A DNA stretch of 64,000 bases from Candidatus Yanofskybacteria bacterium CG10_big_fil_rev_8_21_14_0_10_36_16 (lineage in GTDB: Bacteria; Patescibacteriota; Minisyncoccia; 2-02-FULL-40-12; IGHO2-01-FULL-4-A), in NCBI GenBank assembly GCA_002794035.1, contig PCXQ01000001.1, positions 3,256-67,255 of the forward strand, given 5' to 3'. Below the pieces are notes generated by a model that did no database searches, had not been told where the DNA came from, and saw only the letters and a program-made list of their open reading frames with translations. Of this stretch, positions 757-50,783 are shown one piece after another. Both the position numbers and the translations under genes were made by a program. How positions within the stretch are numbered: the stretch's first letter is position 1; each line of letters starts with the position of its first letter.

Positions 757-892
757 TTAAATTTATTAATCTTTTACTAATCGACATTCCGACAATGCTT
801 TGTTTTTAAAGGGTTTGTCGGATGTTTTTACTTTAACATATTATTGCTTAAATACGTTATTAAATATTGTGGATATTAATAAAAAATGTTTA

Positions 893-31745: not shown

Positions 31746-31809
31746 CATGATTTAGGCAATATAAAATACTCCGGCAAGAGTATTTTATATTTTTATTATT
31801 TGAACTAGC

Positions 31810-33718: not shown

Positions 33719-33721
33719 TTA

Positions 33722-34366: not shown

Positions 34367-34389
34367 TTTATAGTTATTGATGTATTTAG

Positions 34390-35724
34390 TTAGAAGGCAT
34401 GTCGCTCATTTTTTGTGATTTTTTGTAAAAACATTTTTTGTTGTTTTTTCTTTTGTAACCAACCCAACTTACACAAATCAGTTACTACTGACTGGGATAT
34501 TTTATATAGTTGTTTATCTAAATCAATCACCGTATTATCAACTTGTAATGCCAAATCATTCAAGCCCATTAATTTGATACCATTTAGTGTTCTAACGCGG
34601 GATAGAGCCACATAACCCATCCCGTAAGTAAATGACTTGCTAAGGTCAATTTCTGCAGCGTCTAAGCTCATCCCTTGGCTCTTGTGGACCGTAATAGCCC
34701 AAGCAAGCCGCAGGGGTACTTGGCTTATCTCCGCTTTTATAAGGTCATTTTCTTCAACGGTCCAACTTGTTGGCCGAGCTGCCACTTCTTTGCCTTTAAT
34801 TGTTTTGATAATAGGATAACTATCACCATCAAAATCAATTACTTTGCCCAATGTTCCATTAACATATCCTTTATCAAAATTGTTCTTTACAAACATTACT
34901 ACGGCATCCTTTTTTAAGGTAAGCTCTTCCGGAGCCAAGCAGCCTTTTTTCAATGATTCTACAAGATATTTTTCACCCCTGCATTGCATTTTATAAGTTT
35001 TTGGTTCGCTTTCAATTTTATTAAGTTCAAAGTTATTAATTGCATCCACATCAACATTATGAGTATAAAGTTTGGTAGGAGTTATATTAGTAACGGCCGG
35101 TTTGTTAAACCGGCTTGTTAAAAGACCAAGTGATGTGTCAGATGTTTTGCCAGCTCTTATATCATTTAACACATTAAGAAAATTAAGATCTTGTTGCCGG
35201 TATTGTTCTGTCAGATAGCAAATCTTTATATTCATGTTCTCCCAAGCTTTAGATGTGTGTATAAAACTATCATCTTCACCATTTTTTGATACTGGCGGTA
35301 ATTGAAAAAAGTCTCCGGATAAAATTACCTGCAAACCGCCAAATGGCAAATCATTTTTCTTAAACGCTTTGCAAACCTTATCTACCATGTCTAATCGGAA
35401 TGAGTGAAGCATTGAAACCTCGTCTATTATTAAAACTTTTGTTTTTAGGAATCTTGCTCGGAAGTTAATATTTTTAAGTAACTTTGATAAATGATCATCG
35501 GTAATCTCGTTTTGTATTCCTAATCCCGCCCAAGAGTGTATTGTCCGGCCATTCATATGAGTTGCGGCAATGCCGGTTGAGGCGGTTATACCAACGCCAA
35601 TATTTTTCCCTTTCAGAAAGTTGATATACTTGTTTAATAAAAAAGTTTTCCCGCTTCCAGCGGGACCAGTTAGATACACATTATGTCCAAGTTTTAATAT
35701 ATCTAAAGCTTCCTGTTGGGTCAT
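34390..35724 (-). CDS. SF1 helicase, PIF1/RecD-like
   Basis: 444 aa. GPAGSGKTF, TIHSWAGLG, LIIDEVSM, GDFFQLPPV, ITVHKSQGMSLD. Confidence 0.85.
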   Translation of the reverse strand: MTQQEALDILKLGHNVYLTGPAGSGKTFLLNKYINFLKGKNIGVGITASTGIAATHMNGRTIHSWAGLGIQNEITDDHLSKLLKNINFRARFLKTKVLIIDEVSMLHSFRLDMVDKVCKAFKKNDLPFGGLQVILSGDFFQLPPVSKNGEDDSFIHTSKAWENMNIKICYLTEQYRQQDLNFLNVLNDIRAGKTSDTSLGLLTSRFNKPAVTNITPTKLYTHNVDVDAINNFELNKIESEPKTYKMQCRGEKYLVESLKKGCLAPEELTLKKDAVVMFVKNNFDKGYVNGTLGKVIDFDGDSYPIIKTIKGKEVAARPTSWTVEENDLIKAEISQVPLRLAWAITVHKSQGMSLDAAEIDLSKSFTYGMGYVALSRVRTLNGIKLMGLNDLALQVDNTVIDLDKQLYKISQSVVTDLCKLGWLQKKKQQKMFLQKITKNERHAF

Positions 35725-35743: not shown

Positions 35744-37531
35744 TTAAAAACTTTGATAATACTCCCTTATCATATTAGCCATTAATTTTTGTCTTTCTTC
35801 CAGAAATTTTTGATAATCAGTAACTTCCATATCTAACACACTTACTGGTATGGCATTTTCTTTCAAGTTGTTTTCAAGCTCATTCTTGTCTTTAATGCCA
35901 CTGTATTTGAAAACCCCATTTTCAAGATGTTCCAATATTTCAGTAAAGTATTGTTTGGGTGATTTTGCTCCGATTTTGATATTAATTTCACTTTGTGTGT
36001 AGGCAAAATTGGCTATTTGGTTGTAATCTCTCTGTTTTAGCTTGTTGCTTTCAAGATATTTTTTGGGAAATATATGGTGTATATCTCCACGATGTATAAT
36101 CATATCTCGTACTTTTATATCAGTGGAAAGAAAACCTCTTTTTCCTAATTTTACTTGTGCTGCCCAAAAAAGTTTTAAGTACGGACTGGATATACTAGAT
36201 TTAACTAAATCGCGCACCAGACCTTCTGACCAGAATGTATCTGATAATTCAGCCCTCTCTATTCCTTCAAGATATTTTTCAGCACGCTGCTCAACGATGT
36301 TTCTTATATCTGTATCAAATTGGCTTTCGGGAGACCCAGAGTATCTTCCTATTAGCAGCGACATTATGAGCCACTTGCTAACTATACGCTCTATTTCAGA
36401 ATCATTGTATTCTTGTGATCTCAATTTGAGATATAAAATATAAGCAAAGTTTAAAGCATTTTTTGAACGAATTAACCCGCTTACTTCAAACCCCGCTGCC
36501 TTAACTATCATAGAAAAGCGTTCATAATGAGTTTTGTTTACAAAATCTAATACGCCGTTTTTTAATTTATTATAAGAATCCTCAACGATGGCTTCTTCGT
36601 AAGCCCTTGTTTCAAAGTTTCTACCAGATAGTAAACTTACCAAATCCCTCAACCTTCCGCGATTAAACTCTTTAGTAAAGCCAACCCTAATAATATCGGT
36701 ATAATCTGGTTGATAAATGTCATCCTGCAAGTTTTTGGCCCAAAGTATTTTTTGATAATATTCTGTATTAGTAAAGTCATCACTGGCGGATTTAATATTT
36801 TCAATAAACTCCGGATGTCGCAGAGTATGCGCAAAGTAATCTATTGCTTTTCTTAGATTTATCCCAAAATCTCCAAATGCTGCGATTCGTGACATTGCAA
36901 AGTCGGCCTGACTTAACACAACCCCCTCGGAGTTAATCCTGATAAATATTTCAGTAACCGTTTCTATATCAAGATTTTCTTTTAACTCTATAAATCCGAG
37001 CTGCTTATCTTTGATAGAATAAAGCTTGTCAATGTTGTTTTGAATGGTTTGTAAGTCTGCTTTTGGATTTCTTTTTTTGTATTCGTCTACAAGCGCAAAA
37101 ATACCTCCCTCATTTTTCAAAAACTCCGAAATATCACCAATCCAATTAACATCTTTTTCAATCGCGGGTGTTAATGTTTCAAACTTTTCCTCAATGGGAT
37201 TGAAGGCAATCCTGATTCTCATTTTTCTATATTCCTTGTCTAAAACTTCTTCTCCGAGAATGGCTGCTCTTAGTGCCGTAATTCGCTGCTGTCCGTCTAT
37301 AACAATTTTTTTACCGGATGATAAACTGCCATCTTTTAGACGAATAGATGGGTTACGCCATACAATTATGTAGCCAACAGGAAAGCCTTTATAGATAGAA
37401 TCCATCAAATCCCTCACTTTAATTGAACTCCACACAAAGGGTCGTTGAATCTCTGGTATAGCAATTTCATTGGACTGAACCCAGCTTAAAATGTCTTTAA
37501 TAAAATATTGATTTATAATGTATTGTTGCAT
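35744..37531 (-). CDS. DUF262/DUF1524 protein (GmrSD-like Type IV restriction family)
   Basis: Start moved to MQQYIINQ, 4 nt after the res stop. EIQRPFVW and IDGQQR (ParB-like NTPase) N-terminal; HRGDIHHIFPKKYL His-Me finger C-terminal. Confidence 0.85.
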   Translation of the reverse strand: MQQYIINQYFIKDILSWVQSNEIAIPEIQRPFVWSSIKVRDLMDSIYKGFPVGYIIVWRNPSIRLKDGSLSSGKKIVIDGQQRITALRAAILGEEVLDKEYRKMRIRIAFNPIEEKFETLTPAIEKDVNWIGDISEFLKNEGGIFALVDEYKKRNPKADLQTIQNNIDKLYSIKDKQLGFIELKENLDIETVTEIFIRINSEGVVLSQADFAMSRIAAFGDFGINLRKAIDYFAHTLRHPEFIENIKSASDDFTNTEYYQKILWAKNLQDDIYQPDYTDIIRVGFTKEFNRGRLRDLVSLLSGRNFETRAYEEAIVEDSYNKLKNGVLDFVNKTHYERFSMIVKAAGFEVSGLIRSKNALNFAYILYLKLRSQEYNDSEIERIVSKWLIMSLLIGRYSGSPESQFDTDIRNIVEQRAEKYLEGIERAELSDTFWSEGLVRDLVKSSISSPYLKLFWAAQVKLGKRGFLSTDIKVRDMIIHRGDIHHIFPKKYLESNKLKQRDYNQIANFAYTQSEINIKIGAKSPKQYFTEILEHLENGVFKYSGIKDKNELENNLKENAIPVSVLDMEVTDYQKFLEERQKLMANMIREYYQSF

Positions 37532-37535
37532 AAAT

Positions 37536-40217
37536 CTATTTTTCCCAAAGTCGGGCCGCTTCATCAAAGCTTTTCGGCTTCTGTGATAGCTTATCCCAAT
37601 CTTCTTGTTTAATATAAAGCATTTTGTATTTAACGTCGTTCTGAATACTATTAACATCTTTTATCCATTGTTCCAAGCGTTTTATTTTCTCAACATCGTC
37701 TAAGTCTTCGCGGCCTTTGGTTTCTATGATGTACACTTCTTTTTCTGAAACCTTTACGAAAAAGTCCGGGTAGTAATTTGAAATATCACCACTGGCATTT
37801 CGGTAATCAATCCTAAAATTAACTGCGAAGTAGTTTTTAGCATAAGAAATTATATCTTCCACTCCATCAAGAAAACCGGCAAACTCAAGTTCAAAATGCC
37901 CATCTCCAACTATTTTATTAAATGCGCTTTTCTTCGGTACAAGATATGCTTGATCCTTCACGACAAATGGTCGGCTCTTACTAATCTTAATATAATTTTG
38001 GATCTCGGCCTCGCCCTTATCTACCACGGTCAATTCGTTTATCTTCTTCTTAAATGTTTCTGTTACTGTTTTGCTGGCTTCAAGCTCTGACAAATTACGC
38101 AAAGCATTAAGATCGTCCAACTGTATTTTTTTATCAAAAAGGTTGTTTTCAATAAACTCTTTTACTTGGCCGTATAGAATATCATAACCGCTAAATAACC
38201 GAAGCTCTTTCATAATAACATTGGTAAAATACCCTATAACACTTTGGTAATCTGGTATGAAATTACTATCTAACTCTGTCTTGTGAGTTATATCACCGCT
38301 GGTAATATCCCTGAATATAATTTCGCGCTTTTCTTCTTCTGAAAACTCCTTTAATTTAACTTTCTTGTGACCAAATGTTGAAACATCAAGGTCTGAAAGG
38401 TTTTTATATTCCCGATAAATACGCGGTGTAAGAATGGGTATTTGAATATCTAACCTCGGTATATCTTTTTTGGTGTTTTCATTATCAACCTCAACAACCA
38501 AAGGAGCTTTAGGTTCTGTGCCTTCTCCCATTTTTCTGTGCTCAAGCTCAACACCTTCACTTTTAATAGATTCCACAAAATCCATAAAAGCATCTGTGCC
38601 CACTACACTAACTAATTCCGGCACTTCTTCGTTGCGATACATTCGTCTTAACCCTCTTCCAAGTGTTTGTTCTGGCAATATGTTGCTCTTTGAAGAATAA
38701 GGCCGCAATCCAACAATGGTTGTAACATTACGGACATCCCAACCTTCTTTAAGCATTAACACGGAAACTATGGCCTTATAAGGATTATCAAAATTATCAA
38801 TCTTGTTTGCTGCTTCCCGCAGCTTTTTTAATTCCTCCTCATTTTTCCCAGTTGCGCTTTCGGATATTTCACCGTTATTTTTTGTATGAATTACTAATAC
38901 AGAGTTTTTAAACTCCGGATAAGTATTTTCAAGATATTCAGCAACTTCATCACCGTTCTTAGTATCGTCGGTCATTAAAAACAAAACTGCTTTTTTGCCC
39001 AGTTTTATATGTTCATCATAAACCTTTTTCCACTCCAAATAACCGAGATGGACATAGTCCTTGTATTTCTCACTGAACTTTGAACTTTTATGCTCTTGTA
39101 GCTTGGCTCGGCTTGCAGAATCGGGCAGGACCGGACGCTTTACTACGTTTTGGTGAATGGCTTCAACCAATGGGTAATCGCTTATTGTTTGAACAAATAT
39201 AGCTCCGTTATTATGTCTTGGGGTAGCTGTTACATCAATTTGTAAAGATAATTCTTTGCCTTTCATCTTGAGACGATTGTGTATATCTTCTATGGACTTA
39301 AACCACGCTAAACGGCCATCGTGGATATGGTGCGCTTCATCATTTAGTACAACCAGCTCATCTATATCTCTAACTATTACCCCAAGATCAACTTTTGATT
39401 CATTTGTTGCGCCAACTGGTTTTTCGCCAAGAAAATATCGGGCCGTGTTTTCATCTTCAAAACTCGCAGCACTGCTATTACTCTCATAAACCCGATGAAT
39501 GTTAGTTAGAAAAATGTTTCCAGTTTTTTTAACTACACCTATTTCGTCTTGAATATGCAAAGTTAATTGAAAATCATCCCGCCAATTTTGGCCTGCAAAA
39601 CCATTATCCGGAAGTACCGGGTCTTCAAAAAATATCTTTAAGCCGTCAAAATCAGACCTGATACGGTCTAAAACAATAATGTTGGGGGTGATAACCAAAA
39701 AGTTTCGGGCTAATTTTGAATCCTCTTCATAAAGTTTATGAAAGAAGCTCCAAGCAAGAAGTAAACTTAACACCTTTGTCTTGCCGCTTCCGGTTGCCAT
39801 TTTTATTACGAAACGTAACCAGGATTCTTCAAACATTCCTGCTGAAACTGCTCCGGAACTATCAAATCTTATAAGGTCGTATTTATCTTTTACTTTTGCT
39901 ACTTCGTGGAGATAAATGGTTGTTTCTACTGCTTCTCTCTGTCCAAAATAGTATTGAAAAAGAAAGGTCTCTCCATCTGTATTTTCTCTTGGGTGGTCTA
40001 TTTTAAACCACCATTTAAGTAACGCTTTACTTGTTTCACTTGCCCCTTCATAATCAGCATCTCGCCATTCTTTGACCTTCCTACGAAGTTGATCCACTAA
40101 AGGCGGTAAAAGCCGAGCATAGCCCTGTTCTCTTAATGTCTCGTCTGCCGGAAACCACCGGAGGTCCGGGTTTAAAATCTCGTGAGGTGATTGTGGAAAC
40201 TTAGGGTGTAGTGCCAT
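37536..40217 (-). CDS. res: Type III restriction enzyme Res subunit
   Basis: 893 aa. MATGSGKTKV, LNDEAHH (DEAH), helicase C motifs, C-terminal YYPDFFV...YIIETKG PD-ExK nuclease. Confidence 0.9.
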   Translation of the reverse strand: MALHPKFPQSPHEILNPDLRWFPADETLREQGYARLLPPLVDQLRRKVKEWRDADYEGASETSKALLKWWFKIDHPRENTDGETFLFQYYFGQREAVETTIYLHEVAKVKDKYDLIRFDSSGAVSAGMFEESWLRFVIKMATGSGKTKVLSLLLAWSFFHKLYEEDSKLARNFLVITPNIIVLDRIRSDFDGLKIFFEDPVLPDNGFAGQNWRDDFQLTLHIQDEIGVVKKTGNIFLTNIHRVYESNSSAASFEDENTARYFLGEKPVGATNESKVDLGVIVRDIDELVVLNDEAHHIHDGRLAWFKSIEDIHNRLKMKGKELSLQIDVTATPRHNNGAIFVQTISDYPLVEAIHQNVVKRPVLPDSASRAKLQEHKSSKFSEKYKDYVHLGYLEWKKVYDEHIKLGKKAVLFLMTDDTKNGDEVAEYLENTYPEFKNSVLVIHTKNNGEISESATGKNEEELKKLREAANKIDNFDNPYKAIVSVLMLKEGWDVRNVTTIVGLRPYSSKSNILPEQTLGRGLRRMYRNEEVPELVSVVGTDAFMDFVESIKSEGVELEHRKMGEGTEPKAPLVVEVDNENTKKDIPRLDIQIPILTPRIYREYKNLSDLDVSTFGHKKVKLKEFSEEEKREIIFRDITSGDITHKTELDSNFIPDYQSVIGYFTNVIMKELRLFSGYDILYGQVKEFIENNLFDKKIQLDDLNALRNLSELEASKTVTETFKKKINELTVVDKGEAEIQNYIKISKSRPFVVKDQAYLVPKKSAFNKIVGDGHFELEFAGFLDGVEDIISYAKNYFAVNFRIDYRNASGDISNYYPDFFVKVSEKEVYIIETKGREDLDDVEKIKRLEQWIKDVNSIQNDVKYKMLYIKQEDWDKLSQKPKSFDEAARLWEK

Positions 40218-40218
40218 A

Positions 40219-40614
40219 TTAGGTCAATCTGTAGATATATGCGTCTTTAATAAAAATACCGTTAATGATGTTTGATTTAAATCTAATACCTGCTTTTGAC
40301 TGTTTTGATGTTTTTATCATTGTTCTCAAAAGTTTCAGAAAGTCATTATCGTGATGAAGTATTGTTATATTTGAAAGTCCGATGTCTTTTACTGTTTTTT
40401 CTTCCCCGAATTGATTGATGAAATCATTATAATTTTGCCGCGTATTTTTAATACGGTCATATTTTTTTGATGAAATTAATAATCTCCAAGCATCTGACTC
40501 GGGAACAAGTATCCAAAGAAAAACCGTTGGATTTATTTTTTGTTTATCCATCAAATCTAATAAGGTTTTTCCACTTTCAATTTTTGGTTCTTCTACCATA
40601 ATTTTTTTATCCAA
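40219..40614 (-). CDS. 131-aa orphan protein paired with HEPN (no nucleotidyltransferase motif)
   Basis: Overlaps the HEPN gene by 22 nt and ends 1 nt before the res start. No GSx10DxD MNT signature. Confidence 0.55.
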   Translation of the reverse strand: MDKKIMVEEPKIESGKTLLDLMDKQKINPTVFLWILVPESDAWRLLISSKKYDRIKNTRQNYNDFINQFGEEKTVKDIGLSNITILHHDNDFLKLLRTMIKTSKQSKAGIRFKSNIINGIFIKDAYIYRLT

Positions 40615-41030
40615 ACTAAAATACCCTTACGCCTATCTTTTATTGAGTTGATTAAAGCTTCTGCGTCAGTTTTCTTGCATATTCCATATCTGCTTTCTTC
40701 GGTCCAATCTTTAACCGTGCTCCAATTTGACTCAAAGCCCTTATCTTTGCCTGCTCTCTTATCAAAGGCCCACTTGATACCACTTACACTCAATAAGTCG
40801 TTTAAATCGTGACTATAGAGTTTCTGATAAACACTCTTTTTTGGAGGGAAGCTCTTTTCTTTGACATTTTTGCAATAGCAAGCCTTGAGGGCAAGTTCAA
40901 CGGCATAACCTGCTAAATAGTAAGCACCACTATACTCCTTATTATTAAAAAGGGTTATCGCTTCTCTGATGCGCCTCAATGCTAACTTTTTAAAATCACC
41001 GTATTCTGGATTGTCCCAAAATAAAGCCAT
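40593..41030 (-). CDS. HEPN domain protein
   Basis: 145 aa. AYYLAGYAVELALKAC...SHDLNDLL...EESRYG pattern of HEPN (PF05168-like). Confidence 0.7.
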   Translation of the reverse strand: MALFWDNPEYGDFKKLALRRIREAITLFNNKEYSGAYYLAGYAVELALKACYCKNVKEKSFPPKKSVYQKLYSHDLNDLLSVSGIKWAFDKRAGKDKGFESNWSTVKDWTEESRYGICKKTDAEALINSIKDRRKGILVWIKKLW

Positions 41031-41033
41031 ACT

Positions 41034-43283
41034 TTATATACTAATCTCAATTATTTTCATTGTATCGTTACCGAAAATATCTACGACCTTTATGGCAATT
41101 TTACGTCTGCCTTTTGGTAATTCTTTATAAGCGGTTATAAACTCAAGGTTTCTGTCCTTTTTGGTTCTAAATGATTGCCATTCGTTTTCAAAAATGTAAT
41201 CGCCGGTCCATTGTTCTTCAATTTCTTCCTTTTCGTTTTTTATAGCCACAACTTCTTTTTTGCTTTCAAAGTTAAAGTCAACGGACCAGTAATCAATCCA
41301 ATCACTCCATTTTTCAGTCAAAACATCCCTTGTAACTACACCCTCTTTGTCTTTTGAGATTTTAATAATTTTACCATTTTCTACTACAAGCTTTTTGCTG
41401 CCGTTTTTGAGGCTTTCTTCTACCTCTTTAATTGAATCTTGATTATAAAAAACTGAAAAATCAGTTAACTCAATGGCCAATGAGTTCTTTTTTATATGAG
41501 GCTTAACTTCAATGTAAGATACGTCGTGAAAAACAACTTGGTTTTTTTCTACAGCCCGTTTGTCAAATACATCTCGTGGAATATATTTAAGGGCCAAATC
41601 AACACCTTGATTTTTGGCATCTTCTTGTATTCTCGGAAATAATCCCATTTCAAACTCAAAAGCCAATATGTCTACTTTAGTTATTTTCTTTTCAACTGCT
41701 TCTTTAATTACTTCTTCAACAAATAACCGAGTAACTGGCAAGTTAATTGGGCCAACAGATACTAATCTTGCAGATTTTTTACCGAAAAAGGTTTTGAAAT
41801 TATTAATTGGTTCTGCTTTGTATGCTGACAGGATTAAAGAAACAAAATCTTTTTCTTTCTGTGCGATTTGTTTTTGCTTTTGCTCGTCCCGAAGATTGGG
41901 GTTTATACCAACGTAATGCTGCCTTTCATATTTACCAAGATTTAATACTTCAAATGCCCGATAATCTTTCCCAGTCTTTTTAAGTTCTCGTTGCACTCCA
42001 ATCATTCTCTTGCGTGTTGTGTGAATTGAGAACTTACCCAAGTCAGAACCAATCCATTTGCGGCTTAGTTTTTCAGCTGCAGCAAGGGTGGTACCAGAAC
42101 CGACAAAGAAGTCGGCAACAAGATCGTCCTCGTTTGAAGAGGCCTTTATTATGCGCTCAAGTAAGGACTCTGGTTTTTGGGTTGGATAATTATTACGTTC
42201 TTTAGCCATTGGATTAACTGGATTTATATCTAGCCAAATATCTTCAGAAACATTTCCTTTAGTATCTTCGTAAAACCTTTTTACATATGGTAACCCACTT
42301 TCAGAAAAAACAATAAGTCCCCGTTTCATTCCTTCATCTATTCTTTCTTGAGACCATATCCAGTGTTTGCCTGCCGGTGGATACAGCAACTTTTCACCGA
42401 ATTTTTTTGCTTCACCTTGTCCCTTTTGAGTAAAATCAGCCAAAGAATATCTTTTTCCCGTTTGCTCATCGGTGTACCTGTAATGAGTTTTTAATAATTT
42501 TTCCGATTTCGGTAAAAATTGAGTATTAAAAATAGTCTTCTCTTTATCTTTTGAATAAAAGAAGACTGTATCATGTACGTTTGGATAAGTTTTTGACTGT
42601 GGCTTAGCCGATGTCAGTTTTTGCCAAATAATTTCATTTTTAAAATTATTAGTTCCAAATATCTCATCTAATACCAACCTCATGTAGCTGTTAACCCTCC
42701 AATCACAATGTACATAAATACTCCCGTTTGCGGCCAACAAATCTCGCATCAGTGAAAGTCGCTCGTAAATCATAGAGATAAAACTATCTGCTCCCTTGCC
42801 CCAAGTATCCCGATATGCTAATTCCTCTAATACTGTTGGTTGTTTCTTAAACTCTTCGCCCCCAACCTCAATATCCATAGAAAAATCTGCCCCAACATCA
42901 AAAGGCGGATCAATGTAGATAAGTTTAATGCCCCCATTAGCTTCAATTTCTTCTCGTAGGGGTCCATTTTTTAAGCTTGATAGGATTAGTTTGTTGTCAC
43001 CCCAAATAAGTTTATTAGTCCAGCCCTTGATTTGGCGGCCGCGCTGGTCAAAATCAAACAACACCTGCTGGCGCTTTACTTCCTTCTCACTTCTCGGCTC
43101 ATCAACCTGTTCAATAACCTGAAATGGCAAGATAACATTGGTGACTTCATTTGTCTTGCCGTTCCAGACAAGCTCAACCTCTCGTTTGTCCTCAAACAAA
43201 AGAAACCGGTACTTATCGGGAAGAGGTTTACCGGCTTCAATAAACTTTATAGCATCGCGTTTTTCATTGTCAGTTAGATCCAT
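41034..43283 (-). CDS. mod: Type III R-M Mod subunit (beta-class N6-adenine/N4-cytosine DNA methyltransferase)
   Basis: 749 aa. IYIDPPFDVGADF (motif IV) precedes DFFVGSGTTLAAA (motif I). C-terminal extension of about 330 aa. Confidence 0.9.
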   Translation of the reverse strand: MDLTDNEKRDAIKFIEAGKPLPDKYRFLLFEDKREVELVWNGKTNEVTNVILPFQVIEQVDEPRSEKEVKRQQVLFDFDQRGRQIKGWTNKLIWGDNKLILSSLKNGPLREEIEANGGIKLIYIDPPFDVGADFSMDIEVGGEEFKKQPTVLEELAYRDTWGKGADSFISMIYERLSLMRDLLAANGSIYVHCDWRVNSYMRLVLDEIFGTNNFKNEIIWQKLTSAKPQSKTYPNVHDTVFFYSKDKEKTIFNTQFLPKSEKLLKTHYRYTDEQTGKRYSLADFTQKGQGEAKKFGEKLLYPPAGKHWIWSQERIDEGMKRGLIVFSESGLPYVKRFYEDTKGNVSEDIWLDINPVNPMAKERNNYPTQKPESLLERIIKASSNEDDLVADFFVGSGTTLAAAEKLSRKWIGSDLGKFSIHTTRKRMIGVQRELKKTGKDYRAFEVLNLGKYERQHYVGINPNLRDEQKQKQIAQKEKDFVSLILSAYKAEPINNFKTFFGKKSARLVSVGPINLPVTRLFVEEVIKEAVEKKITKVDILAFEFEMGLFPRIQEDAKNQGVDLALKYIPRDVFDKRAVEKNQVVFHDVSYIEVKPHIKKNSLAIELTDFSVFYNQDSIKEVEESLKNGSKKLVVENGKIIKISKDKEGVVTRDVLTEKWSDWIDYWSVDFNFESKKEVVAIKNEKEEIEEQWTGDYIFENEWQSFRTKKDRNLEFITAYKELPKGRRKIAIKVVDIFGNDTMKIIEISI

Positions 43284-43371
43284 GGGCCATAGTAAGATAA
43301 CTTTTACTTAAAGGGTATCACTTTTGTGCTGTTTTTTAAAGGTCTGAAAAAGAGCGTTGAGGGCGTTGACA

Positions 43372-43785
43372 CTAAACGAGAAATTGAGCGACAAACCAGA
43401 TGCCGGCAGTAATTAAAAACCATATCAACTGATTGGCTTCCCTAAAATCTCCGGAGCGGTAGTAGCGGCCAACTTGGGTTACGGTAAATATCGCGGCAGT
43501 CATCGGGATAAAGTTAAATGGAATATCAAATCTAAAGGACACGAGATAATATACGATTATTAAAGCTACCGCTTCGGAAAAACCCGAAAAGCGTGATTTT
43601 AAAATATCGCTATGTTTATCTAACAACCCTTTGAATGGGGCATAAATGAACATAGCAATAATTGGACTAATGGCTGCGATATAAAACAATGAGAATAAGG
43701 CCCATAAGAATGGCAAAAATATAAAAGAAGAAATAATAACTATACCCCATAGCAGTAAACTAATTTTTGATTTTATTACATCCAT
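43372..43785 (-). CDS. Small four-helix membrane protein, unknown function
   Basis: Start moved to MDVIKSKISLLLWG (137 aa). 88 nt upstream of mod on the same strand. Confidence 0.55.
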   Translation of the reverse strand: MDVIKSKISLLLWGIVIISSFIFLPFLWALFSLFYIAAISPIIAMFIYAPFKGLLDKHSDILKSRFSGFSEAVALIIVYYLVSFRFDIPFNFIPMTAAIFTVTQVGRYYRSGDFREANQLIWFLITAGIWFVAQFLV

Positions 43786-43810
43786 AAAATTACAAAACCC
43801 GCCGCTAGGC

Positions 43811-43897
43811 GATGGATTTCTCCACCTGTTACCCTTTCGGGTAACAACCACTGCTGGTGCTCCTAAACGACGGGTTTAGTACCCAGCAGTGGTTTTT
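43811..43897. promoter_or_regulatory. Cluster of GC-rich hairpins (candidate structured leader or small RNA)
   Basis: gatgga-tttc-tccacc, gttaccc-tttc-gggtaac (GAAA loops on the minus strand), and a 10-bp stem ccactgctgg/ccagcagtgg enclosing ctaaac-gacgg-gtttag, then TTTTT. Confidence 0.4.
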
Positions 43898-44012
43898 ACG
43901 TCATACCTCAAATGTTGACATTTTGAGGGTTAGGCAATTTTTAGTTGTTAGACCAATATTATCACAAAACCTTGAAAATCTCCATAATTTTCGTTTTACT
44001 TAAATTAATACT

Positions 44013-44768
44013 ATGGCCTTAATTAACGACAAACAATTTAAACAATTTTTAGAACTCCTAATAAATAAGGTTGAATTAAGAAACGATATTCATTTGGGAA
44101 TACAATACCGTGAATTAATCCAAATATTTTTAGATGATAACGCTATCAAAGATTATTTGCGCTATTCTGAAAATAAGAAGTTGTTAAAATTAATAGGCAT
44201 ATCTAAATATAAAGAAAAGGAAGATCCTTACCCTGATGATTATTATATAAACGAGATAACGCCTAACAATGATTTTATAGGCCCGAAAAGATATTATGCC
44301 GTAAAGAGGTATATACGGTATAATTTCTACCCAAAGGACAACTTTATACTTGATGTGTCTGATAAAAAAATTAAAGGTTTTTATAAGCAGTATCAAAAAG
44401 AAGGTCCGGGGCAAGACCCAAAACGGCTAATTTCCAAAAATAAAAGTGCTTATTTTTATAAATCAAAACAAATAGTTTTTGACAGTGAAGAAACTGACTA
44501 CTTCAGAGTATTTGATGTCCTTTACGAAAATAGTGGGCAAGACAACTTTTTGTCATATGAAAATATAGATAAAGAAATGGTCCGAAGGGGCTCGCCAAAA
44601 CTTATAGATGATCAACAAAAAATTAAACGTATTCATAATGCAGTTAAGAACTTATTTTTATATTCTCGTTGCGGAAGTGAAAAGCTAAAAAATACTACGC
44701 CCAATAAAACTGAACTAATAAAAAAGGTTAGAGGGAGAGGGTGTGTTTTCAATAACCCTCTAATTTAA
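44013..44768 (+). CDS. Hypothetical protein, possible C-terminal winged-helix
   Basis: 251 aa. C-terminal KKVRGRGCVFNNP resembles OmpR/PhoB-type wing endings. Confidence 0.45.
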   Translation: MALINDKQFKQFLELLINKVELRNDIHLGIQYRELIQIFLDDNAIKDYLRYSENKKLLKLIGISKYKEKEDPYPDDYYINEITPNNDFIGPKRYYAVKRYIRYNFYPKDNFILDVSDKKIKGFYKQYQKEGPGQDPKRLISKNKSAYFYKSKQIVFDSEETDYFRVFDVLYENSGQDNFLSYENIDKEMVRRGSPKLIDDQQKIKRIHNAVKNLFLYSRCGSEKLKNTTPNKTELIKKVRGRGCVFNNPLI

Positions 44769-44899
44769 TAAGTTATCTCTCAATTTCTTGTGGACAGCCA
44801 AATATCGGCTGTCTTTTTTTCTTTTTTTACTTGGTTTTAGCGGCCAAAGAGATAAACGGAGAAATTAAAAGATATTAAATATTGATTCAAAATTAAATT

Positions 44900-45526
44900 A
44901 TGCAACCAATAATTAAAACTTTTACTGAACCGGATTGGGATTATCTGTTTTGGACTTGGGATTTAGAAAAACAATGGCAGGAGTCATTGCCAAGGCCAAC
45001 TGAACGAGAGTTGTTAGGTATTTTCCCGGAAGCAAAAAAGATATTGCCGGCATTATTAAGGGACTGGCAACAAAGAAAAAGTGAATTAACCAAAGAACTG
45101 GCTCGGAAATTAAAAATAGTAAAACTTGGCGCGGATAGCGACAGCGAAAGATTTTTCTGGACTGAATGGCTGAAAACAAAATATTTAGGAGAAATTACTG
45201 AAATCGTTAATGACATTAAAAAGTTCAAGAGAATGATGGCTATATCAAACAACCGGGGCCGAGCCTTACGAAGCGAAGAGTCATTGCAAAAGGCTTTAGC
45301 TGTGCCAATAGCATCGGCTATCCGAATTAAACTAAGAAAATTGGGTAATAAACTTGTTGGGCTGTGTCCCCTACATAACGAGAGTAACCCATCATTTTAT
45401 ATCTATACCGATACTAATTCCTTTTATTGCTACGGATGTGGCAAGGGTGGAAATGTAATCAACTTGGTTAGATTTCTACACGATTACACATTCCCAGAAG
45501 CAATAAAGTATTTAACTAATTTATAA
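44900..45526 (+). CDS. CHC2 zinc-finger protein (DnaG-primase-type finger)
   Basis: 208 aa. CPLHNESNPSFYIYTDTNSFYCYGCGKGGNVINLVRFL. Confidence 0.65.
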   Translation: MQPIIKTFTEPDWDYLFWTWDLEKQWQESLPRPTERELLGIFPEAKKILPALLRDWQQRKSELTKELARKLKIVKLGADSDSERFFWTEWLKTKYLGEITEIVNDIKKFKRMMAISNNRGRALRSEESLQKALAVPIASAIRIKLRKLGNKLVGLCPLHNESNPSFYIYTDTNSFYCYGCGKGGNVINLVRFLHDYTFPEAIKYLTNL

Positions 45527-45609
45527 CTTTTGTTTCTTGTTCGGGCTCTTGGCAAAGGCCATAGTAAGCTCCGGCCAGGAGCTCAAACAAGAAACGCGGA
45601 GCTTACTTT

Positions 45610-47154
45610 ATGTCAAACAACCAAAACAATGAAAAACAAAATAAGGAAGGGCGGAAACCACAAGCAACCAAAATCGTAGAATTGGTCAGTGAAAGCAACA
45701 TAACCCTATTCCATAACGAGTTAAAACAGCCCTATGCCTATATTGAAATAAATAACCATAGCGAAATATGGCCCTGTGAAAGCAGGCAATTTAAGGACTG
45801 GCTGGGACACATATTTTGGAATAACGAAGGAAAATCTGCCTATCCTAATGCGATAAACGGTGCGCTATCAACATTAAGAGCCAAGGCGCTTTACGAAGGA
45901 CAGAAGTATAAACTAAACAACCGAGTAGCAATCAAAGACGGTGCAATTTGGTATGACCTTTCTAACAATAACTGGGAAGCGGTCCGTATAAGCAAAAATG
46001 GATGGCGAATCATAGGCAACCCTCCTATCATATTTCAGCGCTTTTCTCATCAGCAAGAACAATTAACCCCGGTACCAGAAGGAAATATAAAGGATGTCTT
46101 ATCGCTAATCAATGTAAAAAAAGAACACCAACTGCTTTTATTGGTTTACTTAGTATCCTGTTTTATTCCGGACTTTCCCCATCCGATATTGGTGGTTCAC
46201 GGGCCTCAAGGCTCATCAAAATCAATGCTATCCAAAGTTCTTAAAAGCTTAGTTGATCCATCTGTATTAGAAACTTGCGACTTCCCTGCAAGTAAAGCGG
46301 AACTGGCTCAAATACTATCCCACCATCACTATGTTGTCTTTGATAATCTCTCGTACCTATCAGATTCAAATTCCGACATTCTATGCCGTGCTGTTACCGG
46401 AGGAGGATTTTCAAAACGGGAACTCTACACGAACGACGAAGACGTAATACACCTATTTAAGCGTTGCATAAACCTCAACGGCATAAATCCGGTGGCAACA
46501 AAACCAGACCTGCTAGAACGAAGCATATTACTGGAATTAGAAAGGATACCCAATGAAAAAAGGAAAAAAGAGACAGATATTTTGCAGCAATTTGAAACCA
46601 AGAGACCAGAAATATTAGGGGCAATCCTAAACACAGTTGCCAAAGCAATGGAGATTAAAGAATCAATAAAAGTAACTGGATTGCCGCGGATGGCGGATTT
46701 TACAGAGTGGGGTTGCGCTATCGCTGAAGCAATAGGACATCCAAAAGAAGAGTTTTTATCTTCTTATTTTGAAAACATAAAGTCGCAAAATGACCAGGTT
46801 ATTTATGATAGCCCTGTTTGCAGTACTCTTTTGAGCTTAATGAAGGAGCGAGAGCAATGGAATGGAACAGCAACGCAACTTTTATCTGAGTTAATTGAAG
46901 AGGCGGAAAGGTTAAATATCAACACAAAAGAAAAAGGCTGGCCCAAATCAGCAGCGTCATTAAGCGGTAAATTAAATAACTATAAAACCAATCTTGAAGA
47001 AGCCGGTATAAAAATAAATCGTTTTGATGAAAACAGGCAAAGACAATTATCTATCAGCAATGATTCTGCTATTGAGAGCCAGGCCGGCAACGGATTAGCC
47101 GAAGAAGACGATAGAGACGCTGCAACGCTCTCAACGCTCTTTCCCGAGCATTAA
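45610..47154 (+). CDS. P-loop NTPase, putative element replication helicase (phage/plasmid primase-associated type)
   Basis: 514 aa. VVHGPQGSSKSMLSKVL Walker A and VVFDNLS Walker B-like. Follows the CHC2 gene. Confidence 0.55.
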   Translation: MSNNQNNEKQNKEGRKPQATKIVELVSESNITLFHNELKQPYAYIEINNHSEIWPCESRQFKDWLGHIFWNNEGKSAYPNAINGALSTLRAKALYEGQKYKLNNRVAIKDGAIWYDLSNNNWEAVRISKNGWRIIGNPPIIFQRFSHQQEQLTPVPEGNIKDVLSLINVKKEHQLLLLVYLVSCFIPDFPHPILVVHGPQGSSKSMLSKVLKSLVDPSVLETCDFPASKAELAQILSHHHYVVFDNLSYLSDSNSDILCRAVTGGGFSKRELYTNDEDVIHLFKRCINLNGINPVATKPDLLERSILLELERIPNEKRKKETDILQQFETKRPEILGAILNTVAKAMEIKESIKVTGLPRMADFTEWGCAIAEAIGHPKEEFLSSYFENIKSQNDQVIYDSPVCSTLLSLMKEREQWNGTATQLLSELIEEAERLNINTKEKGWPKSAASLSGKLNNYKTNLEEAGIKINRFDENRQRQLSISNDSAIESQAGNGLAEEDDRDAATLSTLFPEH

Positions 47155-47186
47155 TAAAACAAGGGGTACTACCCATAACTTAAGTT

Positions 47187-47558
47187 ATGCAGTGTAAATA
47201 CATAAAAAATAATAAAAAACAGTGCGGAGCAAACGCAATGCTCAAAAACAGTTATTGCTTTTATCATAATCCGGATGTCAAAAAAGCAGATAAAAAAGAG
47301 GCTCAATCAAGAGGTGGTAAGGGCAATAAAAGTAGAGTTAGTGAAACTCTTCCGCCAATAACTTTCAAGAAGTCCCGAAACGTCGTCGGATTGCTTGAGG
47401 AAACTATTAATTTGGTTAGGGCAGGAAAAATGGAAATACGAGTTGCTAACTGCATAGGATACTTGTCGGGCCACATCATCAAGGCAATTGAGGTTTCAGA
47501 GCTTACGCAACGCCTACAGGAAGTTGAGAAAAAAATAGAAATAAAATGGCAGGAATAA
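47187..47558 (+). CDS. Hypothetical protein (mobile-element small ORF)
   Basis: 123 aa, basic N-terminus with Cys pairs. Overlaps the next ORF by 13 nt. Confidence 0.5.
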   Translation: MQCKYIKNNKKQCGANAMLKNSYCFYHNPDVKKADKKEAQSRGGKGNKSRVSETLPPITFKKSRNVVGLLEETINLVRAGKMEIRVANCIGYLSGHIIKAIEVSELTQRLQEVEKKIEIKWQE

Positions 47559-47836
47559 CTTTATCTACAATAAAAAGATTAGAGAAAAAAGCCGAAGAAT
47601 TAAGGGCGGCAAATCCAATAGTGGACCGGGTCATAACTGTTCCTTGGCCTTTAGAGATTTATAGCGAAGAGGGAGAAAGATTTATCCAAGAGGAAATTGA
47701 GCGGCGAAATCAAATTAGGAAAGAATCCGGTATTTATTCCGAAGGTCCTTTCTACGTGATTATGCCGGGTAGAATGCCTCAATGGGTGGCCGAAGAAGAA
47801 TGGAGGAAACAAGAAGAGGCAGAGAAACTTAAATAA
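47546..47836 (+). CDS. Hypothetical protein (mobile-element small ORF)
   Basis: 96 aa, charged. Translationally coupled to the upstream ORF. Confidence 0.5.
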   Translation: MAGITLSTIKRLEKKAEELRAANPIVDRVITVPWPLEIYSEEGERFIQEEIERRNQIRKESGIYSEGPFYVIMPGRMPQWVAEEEWRKQEEAEKLK

Positions 47837-47866
47837 TTTCCAATTTTAAGTTATAATGAGTAAACT

Positions 47867-47959
47867 ACACAAAAACCCAAATAGTAGTCAAGACCTTGAA
47901 CATAACGAGGGGCAACGAGGGTTTTTGTGTAGTAACAAAACTTCTTGTCGTTGCCCCTC
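47867..47959. promoter_or_regulatory. Two interlocked perfect 12-bp inverted repeats upstream of the recombinase gene
   Basis: A: acacaaaaaccc (47867-47878) pairs with gggtttttgtgt (47919-47930). B: gaggggcaacga (47907-47918) pairs with tcgttgcccctc (47948-47959). Confidence 0.6.
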
Positions 47960-48058
47960 TTTGTGCTATAAGGCGTCCTCTGTTTTAGATCCCAAGTCAT
48001 TAGAACAAGCATATTTTAGAATTTTTGACTGGGTTTTAGAAAACAAGGACAGTAAATT

Positions 48059-49702
48059 ATGGAAAAAACAAAAAGATTAGCTGCTCTATATGGTAGAGTA
48101 AGCACATCAAACCAAGAGGACCAGAAAACAATTGAGAACCAAGTTGATGCTCTTAATGAGTTAGCGAACAAAAATGATTTTACCATTGTTCAAGAATATA
48201 AAGATGATGGTTGGTCCGGAGATATTTTAGCCAGACCGGCCCTTGATCAGCTAAGGCAAGATGCAAAAAGTAAAATATGGGATACTTTGTTAATTTACGA
48301 TCCGGATAGGTTGGCCCGAAGATACTCATACCAGGAGTTGATTATGGACGAGTTAAAAGAGGCCGGGGTTGAAGTGATATTTATTACTGTATCTGCACCA
48401 AAAAATCCTGAAGATAAGATTTTGCATGGAGTTCGGGGGTTATTTGCAGAATATGAGAGGGTACGGATTACAGAACGTTTTCGTTTAGGAAAGCTCCGCA
48501 AGGTAAAAAACGGCCATGTATTAACAACGGAAGCCCCTTATGGCTATAACTACATAAGAGGAGACAGAGAAAGGCAAATACACGGTTATTATAAAATTAA
48601 CCCCGAGGAAGCAGAGGTTGTAAAAAAGATTTTTCAGTGGATTGGGGATGAAAAACTAAATATCAGAGCTGTTGTAAGAAAATTAAAAGAAGTAGGAATT
48701 AAACCAAGAAAAGCCAAAAGAGGTGTTTGGGCTACGAGCACAATATCAACAATGCTAAAAAACGGGGCTTATATTGGAGAGGCACATTGGGGTAGTTCGT
48801 ATGCAGTAGTACCCGAAAATCCAATCAAAAAAGAGAAGTATAAAAAAATGAAAAAAAGTAGCCGGAGAATAAAACCGAAAGAAGATTGGATAGCATCTAA
48901 AATACCTGTACCTGCCATAATAACCAAGGAGCTGTTTGCAAAGGTACAAAAACAACTAAAAACAAATTCCTCTCTATGTCCAAGAAATAAAAAATATACA
49001 TATCTACTAGGCGGCAAAATACATTGTGTATGCGGTAAAACCAGAAGTGGAGTAGGCCCACAGCGCGGTAAGCATCTATACTATCGCTGTAATGACAGGA
49101 TTTATAGCTTTCCTATACCTCCTACCTGTAAAGAACAAGCCATCAATGCAAGGATAGCTGATGAATTAGTTTGGAATAAAATAGCAAATCTTATGAGTTC
49201 ACCGGAATTGTTAAAAAACCAAGCAGAAAAATGGTCTGATTCTCGCAAGGTGGGGGCAAGATCTCATATTGGCGATATAGAAACAACAGAAAAGGAAATA
49301 TTAAAGTTAAAAGCACAGGAGGATCGCTATAATAAAGCATATGGTGCCGGGGTGTTTGATATAAACCAATTAAAAGAGTATGTTGCTCCGGTAAGAGAAC
49401 GAATAGAATTGTTAAAATCCCAAATAGTCAAAATCAAACAGGAAGAAAACCAGTCGCAAGACAATGCCCTCCCCTCGCTAGATGAAATCCGGTCATTTAC
49501 GAAAGTAACAAGAAATGCTTTATTTAACTTGAATTTTGAAATGAAAAGAGCCACAATTTTAAATGTTATAGATAAAATTATCGGTACACAAAAACAATTG
49601 AAGGTGTATGGTCAAGTGCCGATAACACAAAATTATGTCACATACAAAACTAGCTATCGGTATAGTCGGGTTGCCCAATGTTGGAAAATCAACATTATTT
49701 AA
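48059..49702 (+). CDS. Large serine recombinase (integrase)
   Basis: 547 aa. N-terminal resolvase domain (AALYGRVSTSNQ), recombinase domain, Cys-rich zinc ribbon (CVCG...YYRC), coiled coil. The last 68 nt overlap ychF. Confidence 0.9.
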   Translation: MEKTKRLAALYGRVSTSNQEDQKTIENQVDALNELANKNDFTIVQEYKDDGWSGDILARPALDQLRQDAKSKIWDTLLIYDPDRLARRYSYQELIMDELKEAGVEVIFITVSAPKNPEDKILHGVRGLFAEYERVRITERFRLGKLRKVKNGHVLTTEAPYGYNYIRGDRERQIHGYYKINPEEAEVVKKIFQWIGDEKLNIRAVVRKLKEVGIKPRKAKRGVWATSTISTMLKNGAYIGEAHWGSSYAVVPENPIKKEKYKKMKKSSRRIKPKEDWIASKIPVPAIITKELFAKVQKQLKTNSSLCPRNKKYTYLLGGKIHCVCGKTRSGVGPQRGKHLYYRCNDRIYSFPIPPTCKEQAINARIADELVWNKIANLMSSPELLKNQAEKWSDSRKVGARSHIGDIETTEKEILKLKAQEDRYNKAYGAGVFDINQLKEYVAPVRERIELLKSQIVKIKQEENQSQDNALPSLDEIRSFTKVTRNALFNLNFEMKRATILNVIDKIIGTQKQLKVYGQVPITQNYVTYKTSYRYSRVAQCWKINII

Positions 49703-50783
49703 TGCCCTGACTAAAAAACAAGTAGATATTTCTAATTATGCTTTTACAACGATCGACCCAAATGTCGGGGTTGTTGGGGTACCTGATGAAAGATTAGATA
49801 AATTGGCCAAGATGTCTAATTCCGAGAAAATTACCCCTACGGCCATTGAATTTATTGATATCGCAGGTCTTATTAAGGGCGCAGCAGAAGGAGAAGGGTT
49901 GGGTAATAAGTTTTTAGCTAATATTCGTGAAGTAGATGCCATTGCTCACGTAGTAAGGGTTTTTCCCGCCGGAGGCGGGTCCGCTCATGGCGGAGAAATA
50001 CAGCATGTGCACAAAAATATTGATCCGGTAAATGATATTGAAATAATCAATCTGGAATTAATAATGGCTGATTTGCAGACTATTGAAAGAAGATTAAGGG
50101 AGACAAAAGGCAATGACCCTGCCAAGACTTTTGAAAAAGAGGTGTTAAACAAACTTAAAGAAAATTTAGAAAAAGAAATTCTTGCAATAAACATTTTATT
50201 TACTGAAAAAGAACAAGAAATTGTTCGTGGGTTACATCTTTTAACCAACAAAAAAGTTATATATGCCTTTAATGTGGCAGAACAACAGTTGAAAGACAAT
50301 TGGCAGCCTAACAAAGAATTGCTTGATGTTATAAAAAACAATGAATTTGTTGTTGTCTCAAATACGTTTGAACAATTGCTATCTGAATCAGACCCTGAAG
50401 AAAAAAAGGTTTATCTTGAAGAACTAGGTTTAAAATATAGCGGTTTAGATCAGCTTATAAAAAAAGGATACAAGGCTCTTGGTTTAATTACATTTTTGAC
50501 AACTGGTCCTAAAGAAACACGTGCTTGGACAGCTCATGAGGGTGATTCTATCCCCCGTGCGTCATCTGCTATCCATACTGATTTTGAAGAAAAATTTATT
50601 AAAGCCGATGTGATAAATTGGCAAACACTTTTAGATGTAGCGGTCCATTCGGCGGATTCGGGTTCCTCATCACAAGCAGGCTCAGGCCAAGCTTGGTCTA
50701 AAGCAAAAGAGCTTGGCAAGATGAGAACAGTTGGTAAAGATTACATAATTCAAGAAGGTGATGTAGTCGAGATTAAAATTTGA
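49635..50783 (+). CDS. ychF: Ribosome-binding ATPase YchF
   Basis: 382 aa. GIVGLPNVGKSTLFNALT, DIAGLIKGA, C-terminal TGS-like domain. Two GC-rich in-frame insertions. Confidence 0.95.
   Translation: MSHTKLAIGIVGLPNVGKSTLFNALTKKQVDISNYAFTTIDPNVGVVGVPDERLDKLAKMSNSEKITPTAIEFIDIAGLIKGAAEGEGLGNKFLANIREVDAIAHVVRVFPAGGGSAHGGEIQHVHKNIDPVNDIEIINLELIMADLQTIERRLRETKGNDPAKTFEKEVLNKLKENLEKEILAINILFTEKEQEIVRGLHLLTNKKVIYAFNVAEQQLKDNWQPNKELLDVIKNNEFVVVSNTFEQLLSESDPEEKKVYLEELGLKYSGLDQLIKKGYKALGLITFLTTGPKETRAWTAHEGDSIPRASSAIHTDFEEKFIKADVINWQTLLDVAVHSADSGSSSQAGSGQAWSKAKELGKMRTVGKDYIIQEGDVVEIKI

Follow-up and report, generated by a model that had tools for sequence, protein, structure and literature searches.

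What occupies the DNA between murC and ychF in Candidatus Yanofskybacteria bacterium CG10_big_fil_rev_8_21_14_0_10_36_16, and why does the gene of a large serine recombinase (LSR) end inside ychF? The window analyzed here is a stretch of 64,000 nucleotides from this genome (GCA_002794035.1, contig PCXQ01000001.1, positions 3,256 to 67,255), and all coordinates refer to it. Its segment 31326-49658, of about 18.3 kb, is very probably an integrative, plasmid-like element with defence genes, which its own LSR placed within the 5' coding part of ychF, a host gene for a GTPase of the essential type; this high confidence covers the anatomy together with the consequences that we infer from it.

The right-hand border is the most informative one. 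The integrated form of the LSR gene (48059-49702, plus strand) encodes 547 residues, of which 1-534 are specified by the element and 535-547 by ychF read out of frame. Its TAA at 49700-49702 lies beyond the ATG of ychF at 49635 (MSHTKLAIGIVGLPNVGKS), and the resulting 68-nt overlap, reported in the first-pass annotation of this DNA, recurs in four assemblies (the window and three further contigs from ENA, JGI and Logan) with an identical LSR-ychF arrangement and identical junctions. Because the arrangement is the same in independent assemblies, a misassembly, which that annotation had considered, is excluded. Its proposal that the recombinase C-terminus is partly host-encoded applies to the last 12-13 residues (YSRVAQCWKINII), the normal 47-residue tail having stayed at the left attachment site, attL. 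The ychF gene is itself chimeric (49635-50783, plus strand): the first eight codons and the GG of codon nine come from the element (MSHTKLAIG) and the remainder from the host, in an intact 382-aa open reading frame (ORF) with the domains MMR_HSR1 and YchF-GTPase_C. About 90 of the 120 closest YchF homologues begin MLSIGIVGLPNVGKS (MLSIGIVG) or with a close variant. LSR-adjacent YchF proteins begin MS[HSG][TSA]KL[AT]IGIVG, four residues longer, and this start is seen only beside LSRs. Elsewhere gene callers choose the TTG at 49671, avoiding the overlap, although translation from there would remove strand beta-1 and part of the G1 motif; it is due to this later start that an exact look-up of the 382-aa YchF gave no match in the protein collection.

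The native ychF start is found at the other end of the island. A search with the native-start pattern returned a single match, ATGCTTAGTATAGGTATGG at 31312, 57 nt past the murC stop (0.07 expected by chance). It represents the displaced 5' end of ychF, now a mini-ORF of seven codons (MLSIGMV and a stop; 31312-31335, plus strand). In attL (31300-31349, plus strand) the B arm with this native start, ATGCTTAGTATAGG (M L S I G), runs through the crossover GG at 31324-31325 into the P' arm TATGGTATGAACGCAATAGAACAC. In attR (49635-49684, plus strand), as delimited from nine attL/attR pairs, the P arm at 49635-49658, ATGTCACATACAAAACTAGCTATC, is followed by GG at 49659-49660 and the B' arm, and the two GG dinucleotides lie 18,335 bp apart. 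Directly behind the crossover of attL, codons 535-581 of the LSR gene and its stop are preserved at 31326-31469 (plus strand); joined to 48059-49660 they form one 581-aa ORF that ends ...YRYGMNAIEHKEAKFIPFSFVINLPKPRYERIIVNRDRQGRILRSMAPK. The displaced tail (YGMNAIEHKEAKFIPFSFVINLPKP...) aligns with uninterrupted tails in 16 of the 120 best homologues (R..N...RH....LIPFxFxIxLPxP). Rejoining the left side of attL with the right side of the ychF junction gives native ychF, MLSIGIVGLPNVGKST, which is the reconstructed attB (junction ...CTATATTTCCATGCTTAGTATAGGTATAGTCGGGTTGCCCAATGTTGG...), and the reconstructed attP junction reads ...ATGTCACATACAAAACTAGCTATCGGTATGGTATGAACGCAATAGAACAC.... Since the rejoined halves yield both a native ychF and a single 581-aa LSR with a tail matching intact homologues, attP is located inside the LSR ORF.

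This attP takes up about 50 bp in the 3' part of the LSR gene and forms an imperfect palindrome, ATGTC-N19-GG-N19-GACAT, with the consensus AttATGTCgaGttcaaaaCTa.C.aTC-GG-cATgGt.tGAACaCAAcc.gACAt and ATGTC and GACAT at its two ends. The ATGTC of the P arm includes the surrogate ychF start codon; in the P' arm, GACAT specifies the conserved tail residues R-H. The GG provides the first two bases of the Gly codon in the I-G-I-V-G of YchF and the last two of LSR codon R534, and to judge from the sequences strand exchange would take place at this dinucleotide. The P arm thus has three readings: it is a predicted binding site of the LSR, it encodes LSR residues 526-534, and a second reading frame yields the surrogate ychF start MSHTKLAIG. 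The attachment junction that the first-pass annotation had put at the ychF 5' end is hereby sharpened to GG 49659-60, within the coding sequence rather than upstream of it.

A relative shows the site without the island. In the Yanofskybacteria locus L011 (GCA_016185545.1) ychF lies one base after murC and starts ATGCTAAGTATCGGCATCGTCGGGTTGCC, near the reconstructed attB; the murC of the window (29774-31255, plus strand; Mur ligase N, M and C domains), which forms the left host flank, shares 55-58% identity with that of L011. The empty murC-ychF site answers the reservation of the first-pass annotation that relatives might offer no such variant. Its suggestion that the defence block to the left is cargo of the same element of about 18 kb agrees with the position of attL 57 nt past murC, with the length of 18,335 bp and with the empty site in L011. 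One may nevertheless ask whether any insertion took place, the long YchF N-terminus being a natural variant and the LSR region vertically inherited or misassembled. The GC content of the island (0.31-0.40) does not differ from that of its flanks, and a search for direct and inverted repeats between 28.8 and 51 kb gave no boundary repeats. Serine recombinases leave no flanking repeats, so that their absence is expected. The attL remnant, the empty site, nine attB/attP pairs, the breakpoint between two copies described below and the four assemblies refute this explanation, to which we attach hardly any credence. The same repeat search returned a single ychF-like repeat, inside the GmrSD gene, which was judged a chance match.

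The anatomy is shared by a large family with hundreds of members. We collected 1088 LSR homologues at E <= 1e-3, most with 58-67% identity; a genome scan with the single protein gave only 7 loci and an alignment-based metagenome scan was far more productive. The named hosts are mostly Parcubacteria/Patescibacteria, with some Bacteroidota and Bradyrhizobium. The homologues differ in length, but past the last conserved strand (...LEVSGYIPIT) most read N-[YH]-V-E-F-K-T-S-Y-R-N-R-R-P-A-K-C-G, a C-terminus that equals the 5' end of ychF read out of frame: the ATG lies in the N-Y/H-V codons and GIVGLPNVGKS becomes R.RR.AKCG. Directly 3' of the LSR gene, overlapping and in the same relative frame, ychF is found in five of six related genome loci, and the LSR ORF runs into ychF in this same frame in 59 of about 88 related loci, so that the overlap is not a product of chance. 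About 60 attR sites have the common architecture ATGTC...ATC-GG-NATNGTNGG. Nine complete elements, i.e., the one in the window and eight others, possess matching attL/attR pairs and measure 7.0-18.3 kb (7.0-11.4 kb for the other eight). Each of those eight has a native-type ychF start at attL (MANISIG, MSLSIG, MLSIG, MSLSVG, MLKIG, MSLKVG, MPLSIG and MSFQIG) and behind it, in the same orientation, an open tail fragment that contains the IPF motif; their reconstructed attB encodes a canonical YchF N-terminus. Across all nine, GG comprises the only bases common to attL and attR, which fits the 2-bp crossover of a serine recombinase. Every copy with an intact tail retains the mimic of the ychF start in the second frame. 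The choice of a near-universal gene as target, hit in its G1/P-loop region but not inactivated, may well explain the wide host range.

Two metagenomes have captured what appear to be both states of one element. The LSRs of L078, with an intact tail, and L123, split and beside ychF, are identical in 534 of 534 residues, and their DNA is 100% identical up to ...CATCGGAAT and unrelated afterwards. This breakpoint indicates a single element caught in the attP and the attR state. The occurrence of the same allele in both is indirect evidence of activity.

The enzyme itself has three hallmarks of its class: a catalytic domain, a Recombinase domain and zinc ribbon with coiled coil, and short att sites with a 2-bp crossover. 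Pfam assigns Resolvase (PF00239) to residues 8-153 (E=4e-32), Recombinase (PF07508) to 182-303 (E=4e-22) and the zinc ribbon PF13408 (Zn_ribbon_recom) to 316-375, the latter with 24.5 bits slightly below the cut-off of 25.3. In alignments of 22 and 17 homologues the catalytic RVST region (Y11, R13, V14, S15, T16) is invariant, as are the zinc-ribbon residues C323, C325, C344 and C357 among aligned homologues. The best NCBIfam matches, CcrB and CcrC, remain far under their cut-offs. Long helices are predicted for residues 382-468 in a structure of low overall confidence. The canonical domains (catalytic, recombinase, zinc ribbon and coiled coil) would all be kept in the integrated 547-aa form.

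The anatomy shows what integration does and suggests a mechanism. Integration swaps the native ychF start (MLSIG) and the DNA upstream of it for the surrogate start, with ychF staying whole. It simultaneously parts the last 47 codons from the LSR gene and leaves them at attL, 18 kb away, beside the orphaned ychF start; the integrated LSR ORF continues through 13 codons of ychF sequence, out of frame. On excision the ychF and LSR genes would both return exactly to their original form, and only the excised circle would give rise to the full-length enzyme. In the attP state the tail ORF is presumably closed by a hairpin just past its stop (31482-31539, plus strand), a probable int terminator with 27-nt arms (-23.8 kcal/mol, z = -4.1; none of 200 shuffles was as stable). 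In the integrated state the transcription of ychF would begin inside the element and reach the gene as read-through of the LSR gene.

What the exchange of tails means for the recombinase is the central question. Most likely it modulates the activity or directionality of the LSR and does not destroy the enzyme, by analogy with Mx8 IntP/IntX. There, attP lies within int, and integration gives the gene a new 3' end by which the integrase is modified and not inactivated (PMC6070905, citing Tojo 1996, Magrini 1999). The Mx8 system differs in having a tyrosine recombinase, an attB in a tRNA region and no overlapping start of a host gene, and the effect was shown experimentally there, whereas here it is inferred. 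The other precedent is formed by the SSV-type integrases, whose recombination site also lies in the integrase ORF and whose gene is split between attL and attR and restored on excision (PMC7253208). These are archaeal tyrosine recombinases with tRNA targets that leave two inactive pseudogenes, whereas in the present LSR only the C-terminal extension is lost. With attP inside the integrase ORF the element resembles the self-partitioning type in gene topology, yet its recombinase is not a tyrosine recombinase and belongs to a different family. Modulation is favoured over an inactivation of the SSV type because all canonical LSR domains are retained.

Several observations weigh against the proposed mechanism or limit its reach. 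The functional effect of the tail swap is a matter of inference. Neither the empty-site YchF (378 aa) nor the full-length LSR (581 aa) of this element has an exact match in the protein collection. The island is present in every assembly of this species, which leaves the mobility of this copy unproven, and a terminal-overlap test of 23 whole contigs revealed none that is circular. Some copies with an intact tail reside on long contigs that look chromosomal (Bradyrhizobium AP014685.1, a Chitinophagaceae contig of 330 kb and L078). Promoter scans of the LSR 3' region gave matches no more than in shuffles, so the route of ychF expression is not established, and a recombination directionality factor was not identified. 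Finally, the AlphaFold model of the 581-aa LSR (17 sequences) is poor (mean pLDDT 64, pTM 0.38) and does not place the tail, for which it offers only a moderately confident beta-strand at IPFSFVIN and a disordered linker.

Some of these points would suit a 'suicidal' integrase, in which loss of the tail inactivates the LSR and locks the island, effectively fixed in the lineage, unless a second, episomal copy supplies the full-length enzyme. The island occurs in all four assemblies, the empty-site YchF and the full-length LSR are not on record, no contig is circular and the SSV-type archaeal integrases set a precedent (PMC7253208). However, the split removes the C-terminal extension and neither a catalytic nor a DNA-binding domain, the split ORFs and the attL tails are intact in nine of nine elements, and the same LSR allele is found in both states. 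The spread over very diverse hosts, moreover, requires repeated excision or transfer. We regard permanent inactivation as unlikely.

A serious rival to modulation is that the same anatomy arose with a tail swap devoid of regulatory meaning. According to this explanation attP lies at the end of the LSR gene only because the LSR transcript and the embedded surrogate start can then keep ychF expressed, the tail is dispensable and the integrated form of the enzyme, together with a directionality factor, carries out excision normally. All canonical LSR domains are indeed upstream of the crossover, the host-encoded extension varies freely from about 8 to more than 60 residues, as with accidental read-through, and the tail up to RH, its first half, falls within the P' arm, where conservation may serve the DNA. 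The second half is harder to accommodate. The IPF motif lies outside the ~50-bp attP, and LIPFxFxIxLPxP is conserved at the protein level from bacteria of the candidate phyla radiation (CPR) to Bradyrhizobium, with synonymous sites free; it is open and intact in nine of nine attL fragments. Its Pro and Phe do not vary among 23 distinct sequences, in which all four Pro codons and both Phe codons are used, and this constancy in spite of free synonymous variation argues for selection on the tail at the protein level. A neutral by-product is nonetheless a possible explanation, held tentatively.

The displaced tail at attL could alternatively be expressed separately under the native ychF signals and complement the truncated LSR in trans. 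The TGA of the mini-ORF overlaps an in-frame ATG of the displaced tail ORF (31333-31469) as ATGA, and an [AG]TGA stop/start overlap, typical of translational coupling, is found in the window and in four of the eight other complete elements. Four of the nine elements, however, have no start codon at this position (CAG, CAG, GCG and AAG), and [AG]TGAAC belongs to the conserved P' arm, so that the binding site may have produced the overlap incidentally. Such a split protein is quite improbable in our judgement.

The element can be compared with known LSR systems. Its recombinase has the same order of Resolvase, Recombinase, zinc ribbon and coiled coil as phiC31, Bxb1, A118, TP901-1, SPbeta and SCCmec Ccr, and, like known LSR elements, it uses imperfectly palindromic att sites of ~50 bp with a 2-bp non-palindromic crossover, has no flanking repeats and targets a protein-coding gene. 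In contrast to these, attP is located in the recombinase's own ORF, so that the C-terminus changes on integration, and the target, instead of being disrupted, acquires a surrogate 5' end from the second frame of the recombinase gene. Supplying a host gene with a new start is known from SXT, which gives a new 5' end and promoter to prfC; SXT/R391 at prfC relies on a tyrosine recombinase with a gene unaltered by integration, unlike the LSR in the window. As to the target, ychF has been named as an integration site, inferred from context, of pipolins with LSRs in Actinomycetota, where no att sites or junction anatomy are given (10.1101/2024.05.22.595293); these differ by their piPolB, which was not found in the element in the window. 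In pneumococcus, a defective prophage with int just upstream of ychF functions as a switch that controls ychF expression (PMC8637289). In the literature searched, outside which most subscription journals fall, we found no description of a serine integrase that has attP inside the gene encoding it or that provides a surrogate start for a host gene, and nothing relevant on LSR elements in CPR bacteria.

Serine integrases are valued as tools for their simplicity and one-directional action, and the control of direction is an active structural question. A natural family with a C-terminus swapped by integration allows a direct test of whether regions past the coiled coil affect activity or direction; the 581-aa and 547-aa proteins and four short DNA sites make up a defined comparison. 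The attB of a broad-host-range integrase is at the same time defined in the P-loop region of a near-universal gene. More generally, a mobile element can settle in a conserved and probably important gene of a very small genome and leave that gene unharmed, by overprinting a substitute start on its integrase gene, which helps to explain the spread of defence islands among CPR/Patescibacteria, whose mobile elements are barely described.

The contents of the element fall into two parts. Cargo occupies the left two-thirds and is transcribed leftward, and the backbone the right third. At the far left, two small ORFs (31548-32115) encode a 65-aa CxxC...CxxC protein (plus strand) and a 101-aa protein (minus strand), both known from the ORF list and lacking family matches. 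They are followed on the minus strand (32672-35724) by a 348-aa protein without assignment, a NERD nuclease (33722-34366; Pfam E=4e-33) and a PIF1/RecD-like helicase (34390-35724; PIF1 E=2e-40, with RecD-like matches in PADLOC). A GmrSD-type (type IV) restriction endonuclease comes next (35744-37657, minus strand; GmrSD_N E=6e-33, PADLOC HEC-05 E=6e-32), and then a type III restriction-modification system (37536-43283, minus strand) with Res at 37536-40217 and Mod at 41034-43283 (Pfam ResIII, N6_N4_Mtase and HEPN; PADLOC MTase_III E=2e-117, REase_III E=1e-16). The GmrSD ORF shares 122 nt with the Res ORF on the minus strand, and probably starts at a later codon. Inserted between Res and Mod (40219-41030) are a HEPN-domain protein and a 131-aa partner, which together look like a toxin-antitoxin-type pair nested in the restriction operon. 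A hydrophobic, membrane-like ORF of 159 aa (43372-43851, minus strand), with a likely start at an ATG near 43786, comes after the cargo and has a homologue with 51% identity at the same place in L020.

For the plus-strand backbone the ORF map and the domain scans agree with the description in the first-pass annotation. The putative replication module (44013-47154, plus strand) starts with a 251-aa protein without family match (44013-44768). The 208-aa protein at 44900-45526 has a CHC2 zinc finger (PF01807, E=5e-20) and matches phage primase PHROGs; a recognisable Toprim or Prim-Pol catalytic domain is absent according to Pfam. The third protein (45610-47154, 514 aa) is a P-loop nucleoside triphosphatase (NTPase) with the Walker A motif GPQGSSKS, and because its homologues frequently occur as fusions with Prim-Pol, PriCT_1, Toprim or CHC2 domains it probably represents the NTPase/helicase part of a primase-helicase. 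These fusions also make the earlier view of a plasmid-like backbone plausible. Three small ORFs of 123, 96 and 74 aa follow (47187-48080, plus strand; from the ORF list). The last overlaps the LSR start by 22 nt, has homologues immediately upstream of the LSR in five other loci and is a candidate regulator or directionality factor. Searches of PDB, NCBIfam and PHROGs gave no matches for the 251-, 123-, 96- and 74-aa proteins. An inverted repeat of 39 nt (43330-43368 / 47123-47161, 77% complementary) brackets the 159-aa ORF, the LOOT RNA described below and the replication genes, and could be due to chance or mark a module boundary.

The gene content was compared with that of established classes of element. 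Pfam and PHROGs reveal no phage structural genes, relaxase, coupling protein or type IV secretion system (T4SS) in it. Without structural PHROG matches it does not qualify as a prophage, and since IMG/VR holds only distant LSRs (about 25% identity) these elements are not catalogued viruses. Likewise, it lacks what would define an integrative and conjugative or integrative and mobilizable element, TraG/TrwB-like genes being present near some intact-tail relatives from other phyla, and no PolB/piPolB that would indicate a pipolin was detected by Pfam, PHROGs and NCBIfam among the scanned element ORFs of at least 50 aa. Across the family only the LSR is conserved. The zinc-finger protein is present in about 10 loci and methyltransferase cargo in eight, and many elements carry restriction or other defence genes. 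The sister element L020 originates from the same JGI sample, and its entire backbone matches that of the window element at 47-66% identity; none of the cargo genes of the window were found in its examined part.

A full-length LOOT RNA is located between the cargo and the backbone (Rfam RF03000; 43811-43936, minus strand; 86.2 bits against a gathering threshold of 46.4, E=2e-15). To our knowledge no function has been assigned to this RNA. Of 25 other family loci scanned for it, 16 contain it (50-94 bits; L005, L006, L009, L020, L021, L022, L025, L026, L029, L034, L036, L037, L039, L064, L066 and L078), including 15 of the 17 ychF-integrated ones. By group, these are all eight other complete or sister elements, seven of nine further ychF-integrated loci and one of eight intact-tail loci (the CPR-type L078). 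LOOT is always located 2.7-5.2 kb upstream of the LSR, on the opposite strand in 14 of 17 cases, and the genes downstream of it vary between loci. LOOT seems to be characteristic of these elements, by which an orphan RNA gains a genomic home, and might act as an origin, a leader or a regulator. A more far-reaching reading, which we put forward as tentative, joins these aspects: integration would rewrite the enzyme, with the tail-bearing form restricted to the circle and a tail-less form that differs in activity or directionality, as a built-in switch that supplements or replaces a directionality factor; about 50 bp that specify part of the enzyme, its binding site and a substitute start of a near-universal host gene would permit harmless integration across phyla; and LOOT would be functional, e.g., in the control of replication or cargo.

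The copies with an intact tail deserve a separate description. That they are simply free circles was considered and rejected, as some are located on long contigs with host-like genes. In L016 (Bradyrhizobium diazoefficiens AP014685.1, 4.43-4.46 Mb), L007 (Chitinophagaceae) and L078 the tail is intact and the ychF-start mimic present, and ychF is not nearby. Their surroundings feature insertion sequence (IS) elements, T4SS fragments and defence genes (Gabija-like OLD and UvrD; ubiquitin-like ThiF/E2/BubE sets), and the copy in L078 adjoins IS and ABC-transporter genes. In L060 a group II intron (277-2123, minus strand; Rfam D1-D4 and domain V/VI models) is located 8 kb upstream of an intact-tail LSR.

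Three further observations concern individual relatives. The C-terminus of the LSR homologue P0079, ...EYKLIHRHGEDTIDNFYDKYKPIHRHSRTPKRW, looks like an attP-type start of the tail with a second junction, of the attR type, behind it; this may represent a rearranged or tandem site. The LSR-ychF junctions of L004, from a metagenome-assembled genome (MAG) labelled 'Gammaproteobacteria', are nearly identical to those of L005 (a Komeilibacteria MAG) and L067; probably one of the bins of L004 and L005 is contaminated or a taxonomy label is wrong. In L011, about 0.6 kb downstream of ychF, a reverse transcriptase gene (RVT_1) is accompanied by a bAvd gene (7695-9054), a pair that suggests a diversity-generating retroelement.

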